Assembly (NCBI GenBank): GCA_963719085.1
Contig: CAVRAL010000004.1
Span: 896,001-960,000 of the forward strand
From: a candidate division FCPU426 bacterium
GTDB taxonomy: Bacteria > Oederibacteriota > Muellerivitia > Muellerivitales > Muellerivitaceae
Length of the DNA stretch: 64,000 nt
Reading direction: 5' to 3'
Position 1 is the first letter of the stretch. Each line of letters starts with the position of its first letter. Position numbers and translations under genes: made by a program. Below are positions 39,372 to 54,340 of this stretch, piece by piece. The notes below the pieces were generated by a model. It saw only the letters and a list, made by a program, of their open reading frames with translations, made no database searches and was not told where the DNA came from.

Positions 39372-40631
39372 ATGGCTTACGCTTACCAATCGGTGAAAGC
39401 GCCCCAAGGCGAAAAAATCCGTATCGAAAATGGAGTTCTGAAAGTGCCGGACCATCCCGTCATACCCTTTATCGAGGGTGACGGAACGGGGCCCGATATT
39501 TGGCGCGCCTCGGTGCGGGTTTTTGACGCCGCCGTCGAGAAGGCCTACCAGGGAAAGAAAAAAATATCCTGGTTCGAGGTTTACGCGGGGCAGACCGCTT
39601 TTGATAAATTCCAGAATTGGCTGCCGGACGACACGGTGGAAGCGTTTAAGGAATATTTGGTGGGCATCAAGGGCCCGTTGACGACGCCTGTGGGTAAGGG
39701 TATCCGGTCGCTGAACGTGGCATTGCGCCAGATGCTGGACCTTTACGTATGCCTCCGGCCCGTCCGTTATTTCAACGGCGTGCCCTCGCCGGTCAAGCAT
39801 CCGGAGAAGGTCGACATGGTGATCTTCCGGGAAAACACCGAGGACATCTACGCCGGGATTGAATGGGCCGCCGATTCGCCTGAGGCGAAAAAAGTCATTG
39901 AGTGGCTTCAAAAAGAGATGGGCGTGAAAAAAATCCGGTTCCCCCAAACCTCCGGGATCGGCATCAAGCCCGTGTCCCAGGAAGGCACGGAGCGGCTGGT
40001 GCGTTCGGCCATCGAGTACGCCATCAAACACAAGCGCAAAAGCCTGACCTTGGTGCATAAGGGCAATATCATGAAATTCACCGAAGGCGCTTTCCGGGAT
40101 TGGGGCTACGCCCTGGCCAAAAAAGAATTCGGCGCGGTCGAGGTGGACGGCGGGCCTTGGTGCAAAATCGCCCCCGGGAAACCCGGCGCGGGCATCGTGA
40201 TTAAAGACGCGATCGCCGACATCACCCTTCAGCAAGTTTTGACCCGGCCGGAGGATTTTGACGTGATCGCCACGCTGAACCTGAACGGCGATTATCTTTC
40301 CGACGCGCTGGCGGCCCAGGTGGGCGGCATCGGCATCGCGCCCGGAGGCAATATCAATTATCTCACCGGCCACGCCATTTTTGAGGCCACCCATGGCACG
40401 GCTCCCAAATACGCCAACCAGGATAAGGTCAACCCCGGCTCGGTGGTGCTCTCGGGCGTCATGATGTTGGAACATCTGGGCTGGCAGGAAGCGGCGGATA
40501 TGATCGGCAAAGCCTTGGAAAAAACCATCGATCAAAAGGTGGTCACTTACGACTTCGCCCGGCTCATGGAAGGGGCGAAGGAAGTGAAGTGTTCGGAATT
40601 CGCCACGGCGATGATCAGCAATATGGCTTAA
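39372..40631 (+). CDS. icd: NADP-dependent isocitrate dehydrogenase
   Basis: [29 protein letters not shown] and [10 protein letters not shown]. Confidence 0.97.
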
Positions 40632-40667
40632 AAATTGAATCACTGGGCCCCGACAAAAAGTCGTCCG

Positions 40668-40724
40668 GCGAAAGAAGTAAAGTGTTCGGAGTTGGCTGTG
40701 ACGATGATCTCAAATTTCGCTTAA
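40668..40724 (+). pseudogene. Duplicate, recoded icd 3' end (icdC-like att remnant)
   Basis: Encodes [18 protein letters not shown] versus icd [18 protein letters not shown] (40575-40631). Confidence 0.8.
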
Positions 40725-40777
40725 ATTGAGAATTGCAGGGCTTCGCGGCGGTTTTATTATATTTTTACGGAATTTTT

Positions 40778-40802
40778 GGAATAAATGGGGCGAGCTGACG
40801 AC
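40778..40802 (+). promoter_or_regulatory. Putative ECF sigma promoter, copy 1
   Basis: GGAATAAA-N13-CGAC. Confidence 0.65.
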
Positions 40803-40807
40803 TAGAT

Positions 40808-40930
40808 AATAGCGAGACCTCTTCGTTATGCCGCTGGAGGTCGTGCCTTATCAAGCAACACCGCCCTATGCTGAAAAAATTATATCTGAGCCACCCGGAT
40901 GGACCGGTGTTTCCGTCCGGTTTTTATTTT
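40808..40930 (+). ncRNA. Putative ECF-driven small RNA or attenuated leader 1
   Basis: GACCTC/GAGGTC hairpin, then terminator CCGGATGGA/TCCGTCCGG + TTTTTATTTT (40895-40930). 5' end inferred. Confidence 0.45.
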
Positions 40931-41168
40931 GGCCGCTCTCCTTGCCAAGGGGCCCGAGTGGGTCCTGAAACGCCTTCCTTCATCATCCAGTTTTAAACGT
41001 TATACCTGCCCCAAAATCCATGGAACCGGTCGATTTTCCGGCCCCTTCAAACCGCCAGCGGCTGATGAAGAATTTTTGAAAAAAGTTGGCATAGGGATTG
41101 TCCCATCCTTTATGCTTCTGGCTTATTTCGATCATTATCAGCCGGATCAAGCGACTGGGATTTAAAAC

Positions 41169-42386
41169 TTGTTCAAACTTTATCGCGGTTACCTTCTATT
41201 TATCCTTTTCCTCTTTCCGCTATTGGCGCCCGATCGCGCGCTCTGGGCCCAAACCCCCACCCCGACTTCCACCCCGGATTGTTGTCAAACCGCTTGGTCC
41301 TACCCTAATGGAAATTCAACCTATAGCTCGGATACCGTCGGGTTGGCTTATGACCCGGCCAACCAGACGCTTTACGTGGGAGGCGACACGTCCATTCAAG
41401 CTGTGAACCCGGCCAACGGGGCGCCGATCTCCACACTGCCGGGGACCTATGGACACATCACGATGATGAGTTTCGGCCATGACGGCTATATTTACGCGTC
41501 GGATTACAACAACCAGGTGATCGATAAGGTTGATCCTGTCTCCGGACTGGTGGCGAAAAGCTATTCCTTCCCGGCCTCCGAAAGGACCCGGGCGGTTTAC
41601 GCGGATGACGAAAGCGTCAATGAGGATATTTATGTGGGAGGTGACACCGGAACCCTCTATGAAATCGATCAAGCGGCCGCCACGGTGAAGACCTTAAGTT
41701 TGAGCGGGACATTACCGAATGCCGTGGGAGGCGTCCTGTTTCAGGACGGATCCCCGGCTACCCTTTATGTCGCGGACACGAACGGTGACCGTATCCTGCA
41801 ATATTTGAAGACGGGAAGCACGAGTTACGCGTACAACGCGACGGAAACAGCCGGCGGTTTTATTTTTCCACATCAATTGCTCCAGGGCCCCGGGGGGGAT
41901 ATTTACCTGGTCGGTACGGGACAATATCTGCAGTACGACGCGAATTTTAATTTCTTAAGAAACTGTTTGACGTCGACCTGGGTGGGAGATCCACAGGGAA
42001 TGGCGGTGGATCCGCAGGGCGGCGCCTATATCGGGTCTGAATTGGATGGCGGAGCCCTGCTCAAAATGAACGGTTGCGCGGACGGCCCGGCGGCCCCCGT
42101 GTCCATCCCCTCGGGAACTTGTTATGTGTATCCTTCGCCGGTCCGTAACGGCCACGCGACCCTCGCCTACGACATGGGCGGATCGGGAAAAATGGAAATG
42201 GTGATTTGGAATCAAAACCGGGAAAAGGTCGCCGATGTCACCGACCATAAACCGGCGGGTTCCCAAACGACCGCTTTCAGCCTTTCGGGATTTTCCCCCG
42301 GCGTTTATCTTTACCTAGTGACCCTCAGTTATGATTCCGGATCTTCTGTAAAATTAAAGCCCGGCAGATTCGCGGTCATCCCATGA
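41169..42386 (+). CDS. Secreted NHL/beta-propeller protein with C-terminal sorting-like Ig domain
   Basis: Signal peptide, TPTPT linker, LYVADTNGDRI repeats; C-terminal VYPSPVRNG...PGVYLY. Confidence 0.8.
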   Translation: MFKLYRGYLLFILFLFPLLAPDRALWAQTPTPTSTPDCCQTAWSYPNGNSTYSSDTVGLAYDPANQTLYVGGDTSIQAVNPANGAPISTLPGTYGHITMMSFGHDGYIYASDYNNQVIDKVDPVSGLVAKSYSFPASERTRAVYADDESVNEDIYVGGDTGTLYEIDQAAATVKTLSLSGTLPNAVGGVLFQDGSPATLYVADTNGDRILQYLKTGSTSYAYNATETAGGFIFPHQLLQGPGGDIYLVGTGQYLQYDANFNFLRNCLTSTWVGDPQGMAVDPQGGAYIGSELDGGALLKMNGCADGPAAPVSIPSGTCYVYPSPVRNGHATLAYDMGGSGKMEMVIWNQNREKVADVTDHKPAGSQTTAFSLSGFSPGVYLYLVTLSYDSGSSVKLKPGRFAVIP

Positions 42387-42396
42387 GGCGCCCAGG

Positions 42397-43875
42397 GTGA
42401 AAAGGTTCCTTCGGATTTGGATCGGGGCCCTGTTGTTGGTTTTTCTTTTTACCACCGGGGGGCGGGCGGGCGAGGTGGTGTCCCCGCCGGCGGGGCAATA
42501 TCTTCCCTCGGAAGATACAGGCCTGCCCGCCCGGACGGTCATTTTGGGGGCCGCCTTCGCGGGCGTAGCGGATGACGCTTCCGCCCTTTTCTTAAATCCG
42601 GCAGGTTTGGGAGAACTCAATTTTTCCCAGATCAGCGTCACCAGCGATTTCGGCGACTTAGAGGCTTTCCGGGAAACCGGACTTTTAGGATGGCGGCTGG
42701 CGCCGGGTCTGGGAATGGGTTTGTCCGGGGCCTACTTGGGGTTTGGGAGCTTGGAGGGCCGGGACGAATTTGGAAATCCTACCGGCGGGTACGGGGCCGA
42801 CCAAATTTCCGGTCAAGTCGGTTTGGGGGCCGAGATCTTGGAAGGGATCGCGGTGGGGGGCAGCTTTCAGTTTTCCCAAGAATCCCTCGACGGAACGGCT
42901 TACCAGGATTTTCGGCCTGACTTGGGGCTCTTGGTCGGTTTTGGAAAACAATGGAAATTGGGTTTGGATTACGGTTTCGCGGGCGGGGGATCTTGGCCGG
43001 GAACCTATGTTTCCGCCCTCACGGCCGGGTTGTCGTGGGAGGGGTTTCTCAATCCGGACGCCCGGATTTTGGCCGCGATCGGCGGTCTTTTCCAATCCGA
43101 CCAAACGGACCTTCTGCAGGGCGGGTTGGAATTCGCTTACGAATCGAGCTTTTTTGTCCGGGGAGGATATGCGGTCAATCCTCAGCCGGACGGGCAGCGG
43201 GTGCTTTCCCTTGGAGCCGGATTTGTAGTGGCCGGATTGACTTTGGATTACGCTTACTTACCTTATGGGGATAATTTCGGGGATACCCACCGGTTCAGCT
43301 TGGCCATTCCTTTGGACAGCGGGGAAGTTTCCCCCTCGACGGCGCAGGGTTCCGTTCCGGCGGCAACTTTAATGGAGGAATCGGCCCACGATTTATCCGC
43401 TCCGGCTCCGAGCCCGGCGTTGGCTTCGGATTCTTCTTCGTCCCATCCCGAACTTCAAAGCGGTTCTTATTCTTCGGCCGGGAACGAGGAAAAACTCCAG
43501 GCGCCCCCGGCTCCATCCGCGGCCGGGAGCGTGGAAAAGGTTCCACCTCCCATGAGCCCGCCCGCCGCCGTGGGCTCCCCAACGCCTTCCTCGAGCCTGG
43601 TGGTGGAGTTCAGCATTCCCGCGGACTTTGGGGCTCAGGCCGATTTAATGGCGTCTCAAGGCCATTGGGCCCAAGCGGTAGAGCTTTATTTGCAGGCCCT
43701 GGCGCAACAACCGCAAAATGTGCATCTGTGGTGGGCTTTAGGCGAGGCTTACGGAAAACTCGGGCGCGAGGATTACGCCGTGCGTTGTTATAAGAAGGTT
43801 CTTGAATTCGACCCGTCTCAAAAAACCTTAAAAGAATGGGTCGACCAGTACGAGCAAAACCATCCAGCCCCCTAA
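42397..43875 (+). CDS. PorV/PorQ (FadL-like) outer-membrane barrel with S/P linker and TPR
   Basis: ARTVILGAAFAGVADDASALFLNPAGL, DYAYLPYGDNFGDTHRFSL; C-terminal TPR (ALGEAYGKLG..AVRCYKKVLEFDP). Confidence 0.8.
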   Translation: MKRFLRIWIGALLLVFLFTTGGRAGEVVSPPAGQYLPSEDTGLPARTVILGAAFAGVADDASALFLNPAGLGELNFSQISVTSDFGDLEAFRETGLLGWRLAPGLGMGLSGAYLGFGSLEGRDEFGNPTGGYGADQISGQVGLGAEILEGIAVGGSFQFSQESLDGTAYQDFRPDLGLLVGFGKQWKLGLDYGFAGGGSWPGTYVSALTAGLSWEGFLNPDARILAAIGGLFQSDQTDLLQGGLEFAYESSFFVRGGYAVNPQPDGQRVLSLGAGFVVAGLTLDYAYLPYGDNFGDTHRFSLAIPLDSGEVSPSTAQGSVPAATLMEESAHDLSAPAPSPALASDSSSSHPELQSGSYSSAGNEEKLQAPPAPSAAGSVEKVPPPMSPPAAVGSPTPSSSLVVEFSIPADFGAQADLMASQGHWAQAVELYLQALAQQPQNVHLWWALGEAYGKLGREDYAVRCYKKVLEFDPSQKTLKEWVDQYEQNHPAP

Positions 43876-43887
43876 AGGGAGTTCGAG

Positions 43888-43912
43888 GGAATAAAACCAC
43901 CGCTTTTTCGTC
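43888..43912 (+). promoter_or_regulatory. Putative ECF sigma promoter, copy 2 (autoregulatory)
   Basis: GGAATAAA-N13-CGTC, 41 nt before the sigma start codon. Confidence 0.75.
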
Positions 43913-43953
43913 TTATGATATTGGGGATATCTTTATAAATAGAGGCGCTTATT

Positions 43954-44526
43954 TTGGAAGATCGTGAATTGGTCCGGCGGCTATTAGAGAAGGATCCGCA
44001 GGCGGAAAGTTATTTCTTTCACGCTTATCGGGACCGGTTGTGCCGCGTTTGTCATTATGTTTTGGGATACCATGACGCCGAGGCCGAGGATGTGACTCAA
44101 GAAGCCTTTATGGCGGCCCTTCGCAAATTACCCGAGTTCGAATTTCGATCCACCCTCTACAACTGGCTTTTTAGGATCTGCATGAATCTTTGCTATGACC
44201 GTATCCGGCGGCGCCAACGCCAGATTGTGCGGGCGGAGGAAGAATTGGAGGCCTTGGCCGGTCCGCCTTCGGTGGACAAGGCCCGGTGGGCCCAGGAAGA
44301 CGCCCATCGGCAAAAGATGCTGGATTTGGTGGAAACCCAAAGGGAAGTCATGGGAGACCCCTGCCGGGATCTTTTAAAACTGAGGGATACGCAAAACCAA
44401 AGCTACGCCGCCATTTCGGAAAAACTCAAGATTCCCATCGGGACCGTCATGTCGCGCCTTTCCCGGTGCAAGGAAGCCCTGAAACAATTAGTGTTGAACG
44501 CGCTGGGGGAGGGTTCCCATGTCTGA
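43954..44526 (+). CDS. ECF RNA polymerase sigma factor
   Basis: AEDVTQEAF, STLYNWLFRI and SYAAISEKLKIPIGTVMSRLSR. Confidence 0.93.
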   Translation: MEDRELVRRLLEKDPQAESYFFHAYRDRLCRVCHYVLGYHDAEAEDVTQEAFMAALRKLPEFEFRSTLYNWLFRICMNLCYDRIRRRQRQIVRAEEELEALAGPPSVDKARWAQEDAHRQKMLDLVETQREVMGDPCRDLLKLRDTQNQSYAAISEKLKIPIGTVMSRLSRCKEALKQLVLNALGEGSHV

Positions 44527-45307
44527 ATTGGTGGAAAAGTATTTTCAAGAAGACCTGAGCGAATCCGAGCAAGACCTATTGGCCCAAAGCCTGTTGGAGT
44601 CTGAAGACGCGGCGTTTCAATTCAGCCGGCTGGCCCGGGAAGCTTATCTGCGCTTTGGCCTGCCCGAGCCCGAGCCGGAGTGGAAGGATCTTCCCCCCGC
44701 TTTCGACGCGGAAAAGGGTGGAGCCTTTTCGATTTTGGGGATTCTATTTTTGGCGCTAGGTTTGGCGGCGGCGGGCGCCGGTGCGGCTTGGCATTTTGGG
44801 CTGTTGCCGGGCTTTTCAAAAACACGCGCTTGTGGCCCAGTCAACGTTTGCGCGCCCCCGGCCTCCGGCAAAGGGTTGGCGACGGCTCCGGGCGATTCTT
44901 TAGGGGCGGGTCTTTCGGCGTCAGGTCGCTATGGCAAAAACAGGGTGAAAAAAGAATTGGAAACGGGTTCTTCCGCCAACCATGCTCCGGCTGCGGCTTC
45001 TTCTGTCGTTTCGGCGGCCCCCGAAGAAGCGATTACCCCGGTAAATTTGGATGTCCACCCCGCCACCCAGTTCCCCAACCTGTCAGTCGTGGTCAATCAG
45101 GCGCAAGCCGAGCCCCTGAAAGTCAGCGTTCTGGACCCGACGGGGGCGGAAGCCCGAGTTCTTTATCAGGGCACCTTGACGCCGGGCCATTGGGTTTTTG
45201 AATGGAACGGTTTGCTGGCGGGGGGCCAAAAGCCCCCGGCGGGTTTTTATCAAATTCAGGTCCAGTCGGGGCTTTTTGCCCAGCAAAAGACGGTTCAAAT
45301 TCAGTAG
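44519..45307 (+). CDS. Membrane anti-sigma factor with C-terminal FlgD-Ig-like domain
   Basis: Overlaps the sigma gene; helical N-terminus, single TM, linker; VSVLDPTGAEARVL...FEWNGLLAGGQKPPAGFYQIQV. Confidence 0.75.
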   Translation: MSELVEKYFQEDLSESEQDLLAQSLLESEDAAFQFSRLAREAYLRFGLPEPEPEWKDLPPAFDAEKGGAFSILGILFLALGLAAAGAGAAWHFGLLPGFSKTRACGPVNVCAPPASGKGLATAPGDSLGAGLSASGRYGKNRVKKELETGSSANHAPAAASSVVSAAPEEAITPVNLDVHPATQFPNLSVVVNQAQAEPLKVSVLDPTGAEARVLYQGTLTPGHWVFEWNGLLAGGQKPPAGFYQIQVQSGLFAQQKTVQIQ

Positions 45308-45370
45308 ATTCGGTAGATTTTTCCTTTCTTTTGGGCGCGAATCCTTCCATAAGATTTTTTATTTTTCCTT

Positions 45371-45395
45371 GGAATAAACCCGGCAAGGCTGCGTC
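45371..45395 (+). promoter_or_regulatory. Putative ECF sigma promoter, copy 3
   Basis: GGAATAAA-N13-CGTC. Confidence 0.72.
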
Positions 45396-45400
45396 CTATG

Positions 45401-45531
45401 GACAAGCTTTCGTTCAACCTTTCGACAGATGTCGAAAGGGTAGGCCGGTTTCCTATGAACCTGAACTTGGGTATGAACCGGAAGGTTTATGAAGGGACTT
45501 GGGTGGCCGTTTGGCCACCCTTTTTTATTTT
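45401..45531 (+). ncRNA. Putative ECF-driven small RNA or attenuated leader 2
   Basis: Perfect CCTTTCGAC/GTCGAAAGG hairpin, CCGGTTTC/GAACCGG stem, terminator GGGTGGCC/GGCCACCC + TTTTTTATTTT. 5' end inferred. Confidence 0.5.
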
Positions 45532-45824
45532 GAGCCGGGGCGCGGCGGGGAGATTTCCGCGTCGTTTCTCATCGCCCGGGTTCTTTAAAACCGTGACGCT
45601 CGCCCCCGGCATAGGGAAGTCGAGGCCGCGTTGGGTGGATCCTCGGAGGATTCATCCAAGTTCGGCCGGGCTTTTTCACCCAACCAAGCTGGTTCAGCCC
45701 CTGCCGCCATTCCTCCGGCCGATGGCCCCGTCCTTTTTTTTAAGGTAAACTATCCGGTATATAACCGAGGGGATGAAGCCCCGTCTCGCTGGCTGCCGGA
45801 CCTATTGGATTTAGGATATCGCTT

Positions 45825-48800
45825 ATGCCCCGTTGGAACCGAATCTCACCGAGAATTCTCTTAGTTCTTGGGCTGCTCCTGCCGATGCCGGGTTTTTCCT
45901 CTCCCGTGCGGGGAGTGACCGGCGATTATTGGGCGGACCTGGTGTTGGGACAGCCTGATTTTTCCAGCCAAGCCATCAATCAAGTCACCAACCGCAGGAT
46001 GTTCAATCCCAGCGGCGTGGTGGTAGACCGATTTTCCACGCCCAACCGGCTCTATGTGTTTGACGGCGGCAACAACCGTGTCCTCGGGTTTAGTGACATC
46101 GCCAACGCGCTTTGTTCGGGATCCAATTCATCAGCCGTGCCGCAAGGCGCCGATATTGTTTTGGGACAGCCCGATTTTTCCCATTCGGCCTGCAACGGCG
46201 ACTCGAATTGGCAAAATTATCCCGTGGTGGCTTCGCCCAACGCGTCCTGTCTTTGCAGTGTGCGGCAAAGCGAAATATCCCCGACCGAAGCCCATTACTA
46301 CGCCAACATGGCGGTAAGCCCTCAAGGCGATCTTTTCGTGCCGGATTATTTCAACAACCGGGTCCTGCGTTATCCCGCGCCCGTCGCCAGCGCGGAAGCG
46401 GCGGATCATGTTTGGGGCCAGAGCGATTTTACCAGCGGGTATCAGGACGCCTTTACTTCTTGCGGGACTCCCAGTTCTTCCAGCCTTTGTTTCACCGCCG
46501 CCAGCGATTGGGGCGCGGGCGTGGGGGTGGATCCCCAGGGAAATCTTTGGGTGGCCGATTCGGGGAACAACCGGGTCCTGCGTTTTCCCAATCCCAACGC
46601 CCCGAGCGCGGGTGTGCCGTCTTCCACGGCGGACTTGGTTTTGGGCCAGGCGGATTTTAATTCCAACCAGGCGGCTTCCGGCCCCTCGGACCTCAATCAC
46701 CTTACGAACCCCTTGGCCGTGCGGGTCGATAGCGCGGGCAATGTTTACGTGGCGGACGAGGCCAGCGGCGGCAACCGCGTGGTGGTGTACCTGGCGCCTA
46801 TCACCTCGGGAAAAGCCATCGGTTATGTGCTCACCCAATATATCCAGGCGCCCCGGGGACTGGAATTTGACCCCGCGGGCGGACTTTGGATCAGCGACGC
46901 GGGCACCAATCAGGCCGTCCTGTTCAACGTGAGTCCGGGAAGCCCCACGAACTTCTCGCCCTTAAAAGTCTTACTGCGAAGCCAACCCTGGACGGGATCC
47001 GGAAGCCCCGCGGCCACCAGCGGCGGGGACGGCGCGAATTTCAATTACCAAGATGGAAATTCGGTCGGTTCTTACACCATGAATCCTCCGGCGGGCGGGT
47101 TGGGCGTGGATTCGACCGGGGACGTTTTTATCACTTCCCGGGATAATGATTTTGACGTTTGGCGGTTTCCCGCTCCCATTCCCGCCATTGGAACGCTTCC
47201 CGCGGGAGAGGCCCATTCGGCGGACTGGGCGGTTTTCAAGGCCGCCCAATATGGCATGGCCAACCAAGTAAGTCCGCTGGGACTTCGGTTTGGAAAAGGC
47301 ATGGCGGTGGCCGCGGGGCAGGTCATTGTTTCGGACTCTTCGCACCTTCGCTATTGGAACATCCCTTCCGGCGTGCAGGCCCTATCTAGCGGCCAGGCCG
47401 CCGATGGGACCGCAGGAGTCCCCGCGGCGGACGTCTCCCTCGGAACCCAGCCCGAAATGGATCGTATCCGCGAGGACCATGCCAGCCCCCAGCACCTTTG
47501 GGTGTTGCGGGGTTACAGCCCCTCGGTCCACCTGGAGCTTTACAACCTGCCCCTCACGCCGGGTGAGCTGCCCGTGACCTACCTGACTTCGCCCCTGCCG
47601 GTTTTGGGCGGAGGCACCATTTCTTTTACCCGGGTGGACGGCTTGACTACCGACCCCACGGATACCAACGGCACCTATCTTTGGTTTTCTGATACGGTCG
47701 GCAACCGGGTGATTCGGGTGCGAAACGCCGAGAATCCCGCTATGGCGGTCGTGGATATTGTTTTGGGCCAAAACGGGTTGTCGGCGACCGGTTGCAACGG
47801 CAATCCCAGCGCCTCCGTTCTTCCGGGCTGTGAGTACTGCGCTCTCTCCTGCGGGGCGGGGGAAATCGCGCCCACGGCCTCCAGTTTCGCTTATCCGGGG
47901 TCCTTACGAATCGATCACCATGGAAACCTTTATGTCAGCGACGGGGCTTTGGAGTGGGCGGGCAACAACCGGCTTTTGCGTTTCAACCAAGCCAACATCC
48001 AAAATAACTCGGCGGGCACCCCGCTGTTCGGGGTTTCGGCTTCGGCGGTTTACGACACGGGCGGCAATTTCACCGCCACCAGCCCCTCCAGTTCCAACGG
48101 GGTGTGGGGCCCTTGGGAAACGGCGTTCAACTCGGACGATTCCATCATGGTGGCGGGCATGAACGAATACACAGGCTCCCGGTTTCCCGTGGTTTATTCC
48201 AACCCGATCGGCTCGGACAATCCGGCGGCCCATTTGAGCGATTACACCACCCACGCTTATTCTTCCACCTTTGATGATCAGGACAATCTTTACATGGCGG
48301 ACTTGAATAAAAGCCGGGTGCTGGTTTACTTCAAGCCTTTTATCGGAGCCTTCCCGACAAGCACCCCGACGGTTTCCCCCACGCCCAATTGCTGTCAAAC
48401 CGCCTGGAGCTACAGCTCGGGCAACGGAACTTTTAGCTCGTCCACCGATGGAGTGGCCTATGACCCGACGGGTTCGGGTACGCTCTATGTGGGAGGCGTC
48501 ACGGCGGTTCAAGCCGTTAATCCCGCCACGGGGGCGATACTGGGAGCTTTACCCAATACCTATTCGTACGTGAATAACATGGCGCGCGGGAAGGACGGGT
48601 TCCTTTACGCGTGTGATTCCAGCCACAACCTCTACAAAATTACCCTGCCGGGCGGGAGCCGCGCCACGCTCGCGAACTTTTCCCCGTATGGTAACGACAC
48701 GCTCTACACCATCGCCGTTGATGATCAAAGTACTGGAGAGGACCTCTACGTGGGGGGCGCCAATGACACGGTCTACCGGGTTACCCAGGGGCCGCCCGTG

Positions 48801-49712
48801 GTGGTCACCCCGCTCACCTTGAACGGGACGCCTTCCACCGCGCCAAACAGCGATGTCTCCGGGCTTTTCTTTCAAGAAGGCTCGGGCGGGGCGCCGGCCA
48901 CGCTTTACGTGAGCGATGAGCATAACAACCGGCTCCTACGCTACCTGCAGGCTTCCCCAGGGAGCGCGGCCTTTAATTTTTCGTCGCTGGTGAGCACTTC
49001 AGTCGCCTTCCCACACCAGATCACGGCGGACCCCGAAGGGAATCTTTATGTCTGCGGGGCGAGCGGATACGCCGCTTATGATTCCAACTTCCTAAACCTT
49101 TGGAGGGACTGCGGTAGTTCCATCGTACCGGACACGACTGGTCTGGCGGTGGACGGCCAGGGCGGCGCCTTCCTGGGAGCCGGCTCGGATAACGGGGCCT
49201 TGATGAAGGTGGGGGGATGCGGCATTCCCGGCGGACCACCCACGGCCACACCCACCCTTACCCCGACCTTCACGGCGACCTATAGTCCCACCATTTCGCC
49301 CAGCCCTACGCCGACCGCGTCGCCTACGGATACGGCGACGGTTACCGCGACCTTCACCCCCACTTTGACGCCTACGGTGACCCCGACCGCGACCTCTACC
49401 CCGTCCCCGACGGGCACGCCAAGCGCGACGGCCACGCCCGAGCGGTTGGTCCTTTATCCCAATCCGGGGAAGGGAAGCGATGTGCACCTGTTGGTGCCTT
49501 TAAGCGCGAATGTCGGCGTCCGGGTCCAGCTGTTCACGGTGGCTTTCCGTAAAATTTTGGACCATGATTTTGGCCTCCAGAGCGCCCCCCAAGTAGTGTT
49601 GGATTTACCCCTTCAAGACCAATGGCAAAGGCCCCTGGCCAACGGGCTTTATTACGTGGCCGTCATTACCCCTGGGGGGCGGCAAATCCTGAAACTCCTG
49701 GTTTTGCGCTAA
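45825..49712 (+). CDS. Large secreted NHL-repeat protein with Thr/Pro linker and C-terminal sorting-like domain
   Basis: Repeated ADLVLGQPDF and LWVADSGNNRVLRF; PTATPT tract; C-terminal LYPNPG...LANGLYYV. Confidence 0.88.
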   Translation: MPRWNRISPRILLVLGLLLPMPGFSSPVRGVTGDYWADLVLGQPDFSSQAINQVTNRRMFNPSGVVVDRFSTPNRLYVFDGGNNRVLGFSDIANALCSGSNSSAVPQGADIVLGQPDFSHSACNGDSNWQNYPVVASPNASCLCSVRQSEISPTEAHYYANMAVSPQGDLFVPDYFNNRVLRYPAPVASAEAADHVWGQSDFTSGYQDAFTSCGTPSSSSLCFTAASDWGAGVGVDPQGNLWVADSGNNRVLRFPNPNAPSAGVPSSTADLVLGQADFNSNQAASGPSDLNHLTNPLAVRVDSAGNVYVADEASGGNRVVVYLAPITSGKAIGYVLTQYIQAPRGLEFDPAGGLWISDAGTNQAVLFNVSPGSPTNFSPLKVLLRSQPWTGSGSPAATSGGDGANFNYQDGNSVGSYTMNPPAGGLGVDSTGDVFITSRDNDFDVWRFPAPIPAIGTLPAGEAHSADWAVFKAAQYGMANQVSPLGLRFGKGMAVAAGQVIVSDSSHLRYWNIPSGVQALSSGQAADGTAGVPAADVSLGTQPEMDRIREDHASPQHLWVLRGYSPSVHLELYNLPLTPGELPVTYLTSPLPVLGGGTISFTRVDGLTTDPTDTNGTYLWFSDTVGNRVIRVRNAENPAMAVVDIVLGQNGLSATGCNGNPSASVLPGCEYCALSCGAGEIAPTASSFAYPGSLRIDHHGNLYVSDGALEWAGNNRLLRFNQANIQNNSAGTPLFGVSASAVYDTGGNFTATSPSSSNGVWGPWETAFNSDDSIMVAGMNEYTGSRFPVVYSNPIGSDNPAAHLSDYTTHAYSSTFDDQDNLYMADLNKSRVLVYFKPFIGAFPTSTPTVSPTPNCCQTAWSYSSGNGTFSSSTDGVAYDPTGSGTLYVGGVTAVQAVNPATGAILGALPNTYSYVNNMARGKDGFLYACDSSHNLYKITLPGGSRATLANFSPYGNDTLYTIAVDDQSTGEDLYVGGANDTVYRVTQGPPVVVTPLTLNGTPSTAPNSDVSGLFFQEGSGGAPATLYVSDEHNNRLLRYLQASPGSAAFNFSSLVSTSVAFPHQITADPEGNLYVCGASGYAAYDSNFLNLWRDCGSSIVPDTTGLAVDGQGGAFLGAGSDNGALMKVGGCGIPGGPPTATPTLTPTFTATYSPTISPSPTPTASPTDTATVTATFTPTLTPTVTPTATSTPSPTGTPSATATPERLVLYPNPGKGSDVHLLVPLSANVGVRVQLFTVAFRKILDHDFGLQSAPQVVLDLPLQDQWQRPLANGLYYVAVITPGGRQILKLLVLR

Positions 49713-53370: not shown

Positions 53371-53478
53371 GTTGAATCCTCCGAACGAGTAAAATGGGAA
53401 AAACTGGAGCTCAGTTTATCCAAGCCCTAGGGGAATGTCTACGCAACAGGCGGGCGGAACCCGCTCGAGGGTTGAAGC

Positions 53479-53760
53479 TGGAAAGCTTGAGCGCGTTAGC
53501 CTCAAGCCTCCAGGGGTTGGCGTTGGAAAGCTTGAGTGCGTCAGCCTCAAGCCTCCAGGGGTTGGCGTTGGAAAGCTTGAGTGCGTCAGCCTCAAGCCTC
53601 CAGGGGTTGGCGTTGGAAAGCTTGAGTGCGTCAGCCTCAAGCCTCCAGGGGTTGGCGTTGGAAAGCTTGAGTGCGTCAGCCTCAAGCCTCCAGGGGTTGG
53701 CGTTGGAAAGCTTGAGTGCGTCAGCCTCAAGCCTCCAGGGGTTGGCGTTGGAAAGCTTGA
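53479..53760. repeat. 45-bp palindromic tandem repeat (6 full copies plus partial)
   Basis: Unit TGGAAAGCTTGAGTGCGTCAGCCTCAAGCCTCCAGGGGTTGGCGT starting at 53479, 53524, 53569, 53614, 53659 and 53704; partial at 53749. Confidence 0.95.
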
Positions 53761-53815
53761 CTGATAGGATGAGGATTATTAAGGTTGGGGAATAAGCACG
53801 AGAAAGGGGCCGCAC

Positions 53816-54340
53816 TTGTCCAAGGGATTCACGCTTTGGTTCACCGGGCTTTCGGGATCGGGGAAGTCGACGATTTCGGAGCGGGTGGCCCAACAACTGA
53901 AAAAAGACGGCCTGGCGGTCGAGCTGCTCGACGGCGACATCGTGCGCACGAACTTGTCCAAGGGTCTGGGTTTTTCCCGCGAGGACCGGGACGAGAATAT
54001 CAAGCGGGTGGGATTTGTGTGCCAGCTTTTAACCCGCAACGGCGTGGCGGCGGTTGCCTCGGTCATTTCCCCCTACCGGGCGGCCCGGGACCATAACCGA
54101 AAAAAAATAGGAAACTTCATTGAGGTCTATGTGCGTTGTCCCCTGGAGGTATGCGCGCGGCGCGACGTGAAAGGCTTGTACCAAAAGGCGCAGGCGGGCG
54201 AGATTAAAAATTTCACGGGCGTGGATGATCCTTATGAGGAACCGCTGACGCCTGAGATTATCTGCGACACGGACAAAGAAAACGTGGAGCAGAGCGTGGA
54301 AAAGGTTCTCGGGCGGGTTAAAGAGCTGGGATATCTTTGA
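53816..54340 (+). CDS. cysC: Adenylyl-sulfate kinase
   Basis: WFTGLSGSGKST, LDGDIVR, ISPY, RDVKGLY and FTGVDDPYE. Confidence 0.95.
   Translation: MSKGFTLWFTGLSGSGKSTISERVAQQLKKDGLAVELLDGDIVRTNLSKGLGFSREDRDENIKRVGFVCQLLTRNGVAAVASVISPYRAARDHNRKKIGNFIEVYVRCPLEVCARRDVKGLYQKAQAGEIKNFTGVDDPYEEPLTPEIICDTDKENVEQSVEKVLGRVKELGYL

Follow-up and report, generated by a model that had tools for sequence, protein, structure and literature searches.

The stretch of DNA analysed here (the window) comprises 64,000 nucleotides of contig CAVRAL010000004.1 from a candidate division FCPU426 bacterium. Five co-oriented open reading frames (ORFs) lie on its + strand, with a GC content similar to that of the rest of the window. 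They encode two secreted propeller proteins, a small outer-membrane-type barrel, a sigma factor of the extracytoplasmic function (ECF) kind and an anti-sigma factor with an immunoglobulin-like (Ig) outer domain. They are considered below as a candidate cell-surface signalling module, in which a strand near the end of the barrel protein is predicted to bind the anti-sigma factor. The genes and their parts are as follows.

Gene 1, 41169-42386, + strand: 405 amino acids (aa); signal peptide, beta-propeller, and a dedicated type A-like sorting C-terminal domain (CTD), termed CTD-A (residues 311-405)
Gene 2, 42397-43875, + strand: 492 aa; PorV/PorQ-family 14-strand barrel (about residues 40-305) and disordered linker (311-397)
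Gene 2, C-terminal part, 42397-43875, + strand: conserved donor strand (399-409), then tetratricopeptide repeats (TPR; 411-488)
Gene 2 codons 399-409, 43591..43623, + strand: lone amphipathic beta-strand, with predicted insertion into the anti-sigma Ig domain
Gene 3, 43954-44526, + strand: 190 aa; ECF sigma factor of a lineage-specific subfamily
Gene 4, 44519-45307, + strand: 262 aa anti-sigma factor; three conserved cytoplasmic helices (2-45), transmembrane segment, disordered linker
Gene 4, outer end, 44519-45307, + strand: six-stranded FlgD/CTD-like Ig domain (188-261), lacking the YP(N/S)P strand
Gene 5, 45825-49712, + strand: 1295 aa; secreted NHL/propeller protein that has a Thr/Pro stalk and CTD-B, the generic sorting domain of the genome

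The start of gene 4 overlaps the stop of the ECF gene by 8 nt, and gene 3 carries Sigma70_r2 and Sigma70_r4_2 domains (Pfam). An earlier account made from the letters alone (the sequence-only reading) had described five co-oriented genes including an overlapping ECF/anti-sigma pair, and the ORF coordinates and domains bear this out. Signal peptides and the single transmembrane segment of the anti-sigma factor (about residues 71-95) were assigned by reading the sequence, without a predictor.

Barrel tail and anti-sigma Ig domain

The barrel of gene 2 belongs to the PorV/PorQ family. All 22 barrels compared match the family model NF033709 (PorV_fam) at E ≤ 0.001; gene 2 itself scores 81.5 bits against a cut-off of 90, which two paralogues in the genome exceed. 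Against the PorV equivalog model NF033710 it reaches 29.5 bits, where the cut-off is 250, and it is thus not PorV proper. In its model, gene 2 forms 14 strands, is disordered over residues 311-397 and ends in a helical TPR (411-488). The best structural matches of the barrel are chain F of two type IX secretion system (T9SS) translocon entries, 8gl6 and 6h3i, followed by FadL; when PDB sequences were searched with the barrel alignment, TPRs swamped the result. The PorV/FadL-like barrel fused to TPR that the sequence-only reading had named is thus upheld by family matches, model and structural matches alike. No TonB-dependent receptor or STN match was found for gene 2 in Pfam or NCBIfam, and the PorP/SprF family is absent from the matches of the 22 barrels.

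Alignment of the 22 barrels shows a short conserved motif directly before the TPR, preceded by a linker whose length varies greatly. This motif, with its lone strand at residues 401-407, is hydrophobic at alternate positions, with Phe405 kept in 19 of 21 tails, and it is unstructured in the monomer model of gene 2. By eye, no such strand precedes the TPR in the four PorV-TPR fusions of the genome that have no ECF match nearby. A profile of the strand plus TPR tail gave 81 matches in relatives, of which 72 belong to ORFs that have such an ECF gene at most 10 kb away (56 of 65 when the 16 rows behind the profile are removed). Its sole non-module match in the genome, in one of the four fusions, starts at profile position 20, past the strand. 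In genome G060 (G060:C2, L132:4888-7201), a strand plus TPR tail occurs after an ECF and an Ig anti-sigma gene on a protein that has no barrel. One barrel ORF elsewhere (G026:C21:64728-65348) carries two copies of the tail.

The anti-sigma factor is modelled with three confident helices (2-45), a middle part of low confidence and six strands (188-261). The helices are a candidate ECF-binding bundle of the ASDI type (anti-sigma domain, class I). A FlgD_ig match covers residues 194-250; all 22 anti-sigma members match FlgD_ig in Pfam, none matches FecR, and RsgI_N, SEAL and anti-sigma families are likewise without a Pfam match among them. Structural matches of the Ig domain (185-262) are middling, with Vpr at Z 8.6 (rmsd 2.7, 79 residues aligned) and the C-terminal region of PorU at Z 8.5 (rmsd 2.4, 77 aligned). 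They agree with the FlgD_ig match on the FlgD/CTD-like Ig fold that had been proposed for this end of the protein. PDB sequence searches returned only FlgD and TPR relatives. An identity as flagellar FlgD was rejected, the match being restricted to the Ig part. The Ig domain has neither the YP(N/S)P first strand nor the C-terminal end of cargo proteins. It does not match TIGR04183 at E ≤ 0.1, whereas five of six CTD-A tails and the gene 5 tail do, and profile comparison with CTD-A gives a probability of 0.3%.

Because the barrel tails carry a conserved lone strand and the Ig domain lacks the first strand of cargo tails, strand addition between the two was hypothesised. Complex prediction with the barrel tail (393-490) and the anti-sigma Ig domain (168-262), using our own alignments and three controls, gave a score of 0.67 (runs 0.68, 0.60 and 0.67) vs 0.00 for the best control. 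Of 157 solved complexes, 116 attained the mark by which this score is read, as did 2 of 215 mismatched pairs; these counts apply only roughly to predictions made with our own alignments. The runs share at least 80% of contacts, and the pLDDT (model confidence) of the partners is at least 81. In the predicted interface, barrel residues 399-409 face anti-sigma residues 186-196 and 246-259, and the TPR lies outside. Barrel residues 403, 405 and 407 pack on 246-259, and the strand runs along anti-sigma strand 188-194. Binding of the donor strand to the anti-sigma Ig domain is thus supported by this prediction. We know of no solved complex of this strand-into-Ig kind.

Recurrence, sorting domains and promoters

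The genome (3.04 Mb, 99% complete) holds three copies of the module including that of the window. In the two others the order is ECF, anti-sigma, CTD protein, barrel-TPR.

Second copy: C1:1272921-1276935
Third copy: C4:1039158-1043670

Searches of 30 other genomes of the family used thresholds of E ≤ 1e-15 for the barrel, E ≤ 1e-22 for the ECF and E ≤ 1e-9 for the gene 1 tail profile. They gave 95 barrel matches in 28 genomes, 111 ECF matches in all 30 and 111 CTD-A matches outside the source genome in 29; the anti-sigma factor was matched in 29 of the 30. A co-oriented ECF gene of the same subfamily lies within 10 kb of 82 of the 95 barrels, and for 90 of the 111 CTD-A tails a co-oriented barrel is no more than about 3 kb away, the tail being mostly directly upstream of it and at times directly downstream. 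These synteny counts were taken by hand from match coordinates with all rows kept, and the misses include contig edges. In nine cases the gap between tail and ECF is 1.3-1.5 kb; two were inspected, and both held a more divergent barrel. There are three to eight copies per genome. Gene order varies between modules, yet the ECF, anti-sigma, CTD protein and barrel genes remain together. The gene set is not a chance assembly, since the genome has two further copies and it is found again across the family; the co-occurrence of ECF, Ig anti-sigma and PorV-type genes in relatives, which had been put forward as a test, is conserved.

The window's own order, with an ORF of 1,800-2,800 aa after the anti-sigma gene, was found in eight of eight loci that had been chosen for a barrel upstream of the ECF. 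In the window, a HAD hydrolase flanks the module on one side, and the ORF on the other flank is, to judge from its sequence, presumably an isocitrate dehydrogenase-like gene. The one locus of the eight that was translated (G024) matches the window gene for gene and has the same dehydrogenase adjoining. In 30 genomes outside the family, full-length Ig-type anti-sigma factors occurred only in G060, which has one complete module. A search of genome contigs for related loci returned one weak, probably spurious match.

Some relatives of single parts were also seen. At G032:C118 (L135:1214-5989), the same ECF subfamily and the anti-sigma N-terminal bundle occur with a different outer domain, and the pair flanks a 1156-aa TPR protein whose end we take to be CHAT-like. 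A fourth anti-sigma-like protein of the source genome (L093:5579-6337; G000:C1:1237578-1238336) has a transmembrane segment and FlgD-Ig domain and no adjoining ECF; the gene directly upstream is presumably that of a flagellar hook protein, FlgE-like. Look-alikes in the Atlas for a homologue, scoring 0.83-0.86 (under 0.9), are hypothetical proteins of 260-390 aa from Bacteroidota and Ignavibacteriota, in clusters that carry Por_Secre_tail (34%), CHU_C (43-55%) or zf-HC2 (45%). As a lead only, CTD-tailed anti-sigma factors may exist in classical T9SS hosts.

Genes 1 and 5 share their propeller, with 44% identity between gene 1 and gene 5 residues 847-1129 (BLAST, E 2e-63). Both end in YP(S/N)P...G(V/L)Y, with weak Por_Secre_tail matches. 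The two tails are not aligned by BLAST and have separate match sets in the genome, and so represent different classes. The paralogy claimed by the sequence-only reading therefore holds for the propeller and fails for the tails, and a treatment of genes 1 and 5 as equivalent cargo was rejected. The genome holds three strong CTD-A copies, and a barrel-TPR gene directly follows each of them; CTD-B has 18 matches, many on glycoside hydrolases. The type A model TIGR04183 is matched by five of six CTD-A domains, four of them above its cut-off of 23 bits; the window copies fall under it (gene 1, 16.3 bits; gene 5, 21.9 bits). The type B model TIGR04131 has no match among eight domains, and a PDB sequence search with CTD-A gave only a weak CTD match (E 0.14). 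CTD-A thus appears to be type A by model, yet deployed like a type B CTD beside a cognate barrel. Four large secreted proteins at G000:C4:1000827-1036523 share identical last 45 residues, which suggests recent duplication or gene conversion of the generic CTD.

Among 16 CTD-A proteins scanned, the heads are an NHL/SGL propeller, PA14 with CBM9, pectate lyase with malectin, DUF11, or none. In the genome's two other modules, the PA14+CBM9 head stands beside GH62 and GH30 enzymes, and the pectate lyase+malectin head beside GH28. Heads fit the neighbouring enzymes in these two cases, which make no rule; in the window, the propeller of gene 1 recurs in gene 5. As a separate observation, 20 ORFs of the genome carry 22 PorV-family matches, several of them fused to FlgD-Ig, OmpA-like, FN3-like or TPR parts. 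Among the PorV-family loci opened (L104, L107, L112 and L115), three of four barrels lie directly after a CTD-bearing gene, which suggests that the genome may hold many dedicated cargo-barrel pairs.

Three ECF-type promoter-like sites lie in the locus, all on the + strand.

Site 1, 40778..40802, + strand: -35 GGAATAAA, 13 nt, -10 CGAC; 367 nt upstream of gene 1
Site 2, 43888..43912, + strand: -35 GGAATAAA, -10 CGTC; 41 nt upstream of the ECF start
Site 3, 45371..45395, + strand: -35 GGAATAAA, -10 CGTC; upstream of gene 5

When the spacer before gene 5 was aligned with seven relatives, GGAATA...C(G/C)(T/A)C at ECF-like spacing was conserved in all eight sequences. The pattern occurs three times in the window (before gene 1, the ECF gene and gene 5) vs 0.01 expected, one of the three being in the training set. 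GGAATA lies upstream of 20 of 21 ECF genes examined; the -10 part differs among paralogues, as expected for insulated switches. Site 2 would be an autoregulatory promoter. Upstream of gene 1 orthologues, GGAATA is not conserved in seven relatives, in an alignment whose window row began downstream of site 1. No sigma-70 promoter-like sites were found in the locus, vs 4.0 expected.

A terminator-like hairpin (40895-40920) lies downstream of site 1. After sites 1 and 3 come about 125 nt of hairpins, which close with a terminator-like stem and a U-run no more than about 130 nt from the site; folding gave z -2.2 for 40808-40930 and z -3.5 for 45401-45530. These sites may yield ECF-dependent short RNAs or attenuated leaders. 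The hairpin stretches are not conserved in the relatives searched, Rfam has no match in 40600-46000, and terminator-like sites overall are not above shuffles (18 vs 17.8). The spacer 45360-45830 had no match in the 18 family genomes searched; its one match, of 28 nt, lies in a genome from a different family.

Proposed signalling and its alternatives

With a probability of roughly 0.6, the module is a cell-surface signalling system whose secreted sensor is seated on a PorV-like barrel of its own, the barrel being tethered to the anti-sigma factor by strand donation. It would work like FecA/FecR and RsgI, being homologous to neither. Gene 1, the likely surface sensor and cognate partner of the gene 2 barrel, would be exported through a SprA-like pore and held on the surface by the barrel via CTD-A. 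This binding is suggested by the gene pairing and by analogy with type B CTD/PorP-SprF pairs. The C-terminal linker of the barrel would lie in the periplasm, its end strand filling the edge that the Ig domain of the anti-sigma factor leaves open, as in the predicted complex, and the two flexible linkers would together bridge the periplasm. By comparison with PupR/FoxR and RsgI, the complemented anti-sigma factor would be stable and would retain the ECF. A ligand, or a pull on the surface domain, would strip or exchange the strand; site-1 proteolysis of the uncomplemented Ig domain, for example by Prc, would be followed by cleavage by RseP, and the ECF would be freed. The ECF would then transcribe its own gene and the neighbouring large generic-CTD secreted protein or proteins from GGAATA-N15-17-(C)GTC-type promoters, with gene 5 as the probable output of the switch. 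Paralogous modules would exchange the sensor head (propeller, PA14+CBM9, pectate lyase+malectin) together with the adjoining enzymes. As for the machinery, a SprA-like ORF of 1966 aa has four matched stretches (best E 7.9e-35), each below cut-off, the PorU profile matches only CTD regions, and RseP and Prc are both above cut-off in the genome.

A more specific form of this signalling proposal is tentative: binding to an insoluble substrate would pull the strand from the Ig domain and free the ECF, the T9SS-displayed, exchangeable sensor acting on a mechanical tether. If true, this would be a third trans-envelope architecture, a two-membrane counterpart, in three genes, of RsgI and of mechanosensing by adhesion G-protein-coupled receptors, and a mechanical tether in a lineage in which no T9SS motor was recognised.

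Several points weigh against the signalling proposal. The proposal offers no route for a signal across a small barrel with a floppy linker. The predictor could complete an Ig fold with any amphipathic strand, and the controls behind the 0.00 score were unrelated proteins, not strand-scrambled or non-cognate tails. The family genomes are kin, so that synteny counts such as 82 of 95 barrels represent conservation, not independent origins. In some modules the CTD-A protein is headless, a signal peptide and CTD of 118-140 aa, and the barrel-less protein of G060 has a signal peptide and a glycine-rich hydrophobic segment in place of the barrel; because of these cases, an extracellular ligand-sensing step is not universal. 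GldM and GldN have no match in the genome, in searches that matched no control genome either. Finally, a looser promoter pattern is only modestly above control genome-wide (15 vs 8 matches), and the regulon therefore looks local.

The alternative that survives best, though we consider it unlikely, is an assembly or occupancy checkpoint with no outside ligand. Here the strand would stabilise the anti-sigma factor only when the barrel, with its CTD partner, sits correctly in the outer membrane, and the ECF would report barrel supply, envelope spacing or the health of the secretion pathway and top up the module. The CTD-only partners, the tail on a barrel-less membrane protein and the putative autoregulatory promoter all fit such a checkpoint. 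So does precedent: in the available parts of the sources, contact of PupB with PupR (PMC7186176), and likewise that of FoxA with FoxR (PMC11637429), is proposed to protect the anti-sigma factor before any signal and until proteolysis by Prc and RseP, as would hold for the present module. Against it, 14 of the 16 scanned CTD-A proteins have a propeller, carbohydrate-binding, lyase or DUF11 match, so that most would have ligand-binding or enzyme heads, and the differing -10 elements and three to eight copies per genome fit several inputs better.

The sequence-only reading had suggested that the Ig domain may be a cargo-mimicking tag bound by the PorV-like barrel or the export machinery. On this model the domain would pass into the SprA pore or occupy the CTD site of the barrel, export competence then removing or cutting the anti-sigma factor. 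Such export-driven removal follows FlgM-like logic. The CTD/FlgD fold (the PorU CTD region being tied with Vpr), the SprA-like pore and an anti-sigma linker that is probably long enough to reach the outer membrane are consistent with this idea. It is nevertheless improbable: the features of cargo tails are missing from the domain, as detailed above (YP(N/S)P strand, cargo-type end, TIGR04183 match, CTD-A profile similarity), the protein is membrane-anchored with a cytoplasmic N-terminus, a separate and well-scoring partner, the donor strand, is predicted for it, and the barrel has its own likely CTD partner in gene 1, whose CTD-A is the better candidate for that site.

Mere co-regulation would mean an ECF/anti-sigma pair that answers a periplasmic cue by switching a cargo-shuttle operon, barrel tail and anti-sigma factor staying physically unlinked. 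It would suit the cargo and barrel pairs of the genome that have no ECF match nearby and the 29 of 111 ECF matches without a barrel (E ≤ 1e-15) within 10 kb, some of them at contig edges or beside divergent barrels, and is equally improbable, in that the strand is kept specifically in ECF-linked tails, survives barrel replacement and makes up the whole barrel side of the predicted interface, and the four genes stay together despite shuffled order.

Known systems and further observations

TonB-dependent signalling (FecA/FecR/FecI, PupB/PupR/PupI, FoxA/FoxR/FoxI) offers the closest likeness in working. There, according to the parts of the sources available, a periplasmic extension of an outer-membrane barrel binds a single-pass anti-sigma factor, and the ECF gene adjoins; in the module the adjacency is seen and the contact predicted. 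Unlike those receptors, the module barrel is a 14-strand member of the PorV/PorQ family, and its predicted link is a lone strand in the C-terminal part where those receptors use an N-terminal STN domain. On the anti-sigma factor, a FlgD/CTD-like Ig domain takes the place of FecR/CCSSD, and the likely sensor is a separate secreted protein. The parallel to FecIRA drawn in the sequence-only reading, with a PorV-type receptor, is thus retained for similar working and dropped for homology to the TonB-dependent receptor, STN and FecR.

A gene for a type B CTD is found directly before that of its cognate PorP/SprF shuttle, which is thought to collect and surface-anchor the cargo; PorP also connects to the periplasmic TPR protein PorE (available parts of PMC12618676 and PMC9143113). 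The module resembles these pairs in having a special CTD class whose gene stands beside its own small barrel. It differs in that CTD-A matches TIGR04183, the barrel is of the PorV/PorQ family, and the link is to an anti-sigma factor and not to peptidoglycan; the described pairs, as far as these parts of the sources go, have no sigma factor.

The SigI/RsgI systems of Clostridium thermocellum and Bacillus subtilis are polysaccharide sensors, in which, in the portions of the sources covered, parting of a beta-sheet shared by two polypeptide pieces permits intramembrane proteolysis (PMC10328401, PMC10556640). Paralogous sigma/anti-sigma sets, carbohydrate-sensing heads and control of secreted enzymes are common features. 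In contrast to RsgI, which is one self-cleaving chain at one membrane, the module uses three gene products across two membranes, its strand would be supplied in trans by an outer-membrane protein, and the two systems are unrelated in fold. In Porphyromonas gingivalis, the small PorV-binding CTD protein PorA relays a surface signal to an ECF through PorXY-SigP (part of PMC7712824 available). That route is a two-component relay with the general PorV and T9SS gene targets, whereas the module has a dedicated barrel, a membrane anti-sigma factor and apparently local targets.

No description of this arrangement was found in the open literature, a coverage that excludes subscription journals and supplements; within it, literature joining anti-sigma factors, PorV and ECF concerned P. 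gingivalis only. The main text of the ECF re-classification (PMC7826278) does not contain 'FlgD', 'PorV' or 'Por secretion', and its group descriptions, which may bear on novelty, lie in the supplements. Known outside-to-ECF routes in two-membrane cells mostly pass through TonB-dependent receptors. The module points to PorV-family barrels and T9SS cargo as another route, and PorV-like paralogues would gain a signalling role beyond shuttling. The interaction is small and testable, being an 11-residue strand and a 90-residue Ig domain. Natural variants (111 ECF matches in 30 genomes, with varied heads and -10 elements) could reveal how uncultured soil degraders sense polymers for which they have no import, and could be a source of orthogonal surface-sensing switches.

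Elsewhere in the window, positions 53394-53896 hold a tandem array of about six 45-bp units, with repetitive ORFs in several frames, between malate dehydrogenase-like and adenylylsulfate kinase-like genes.

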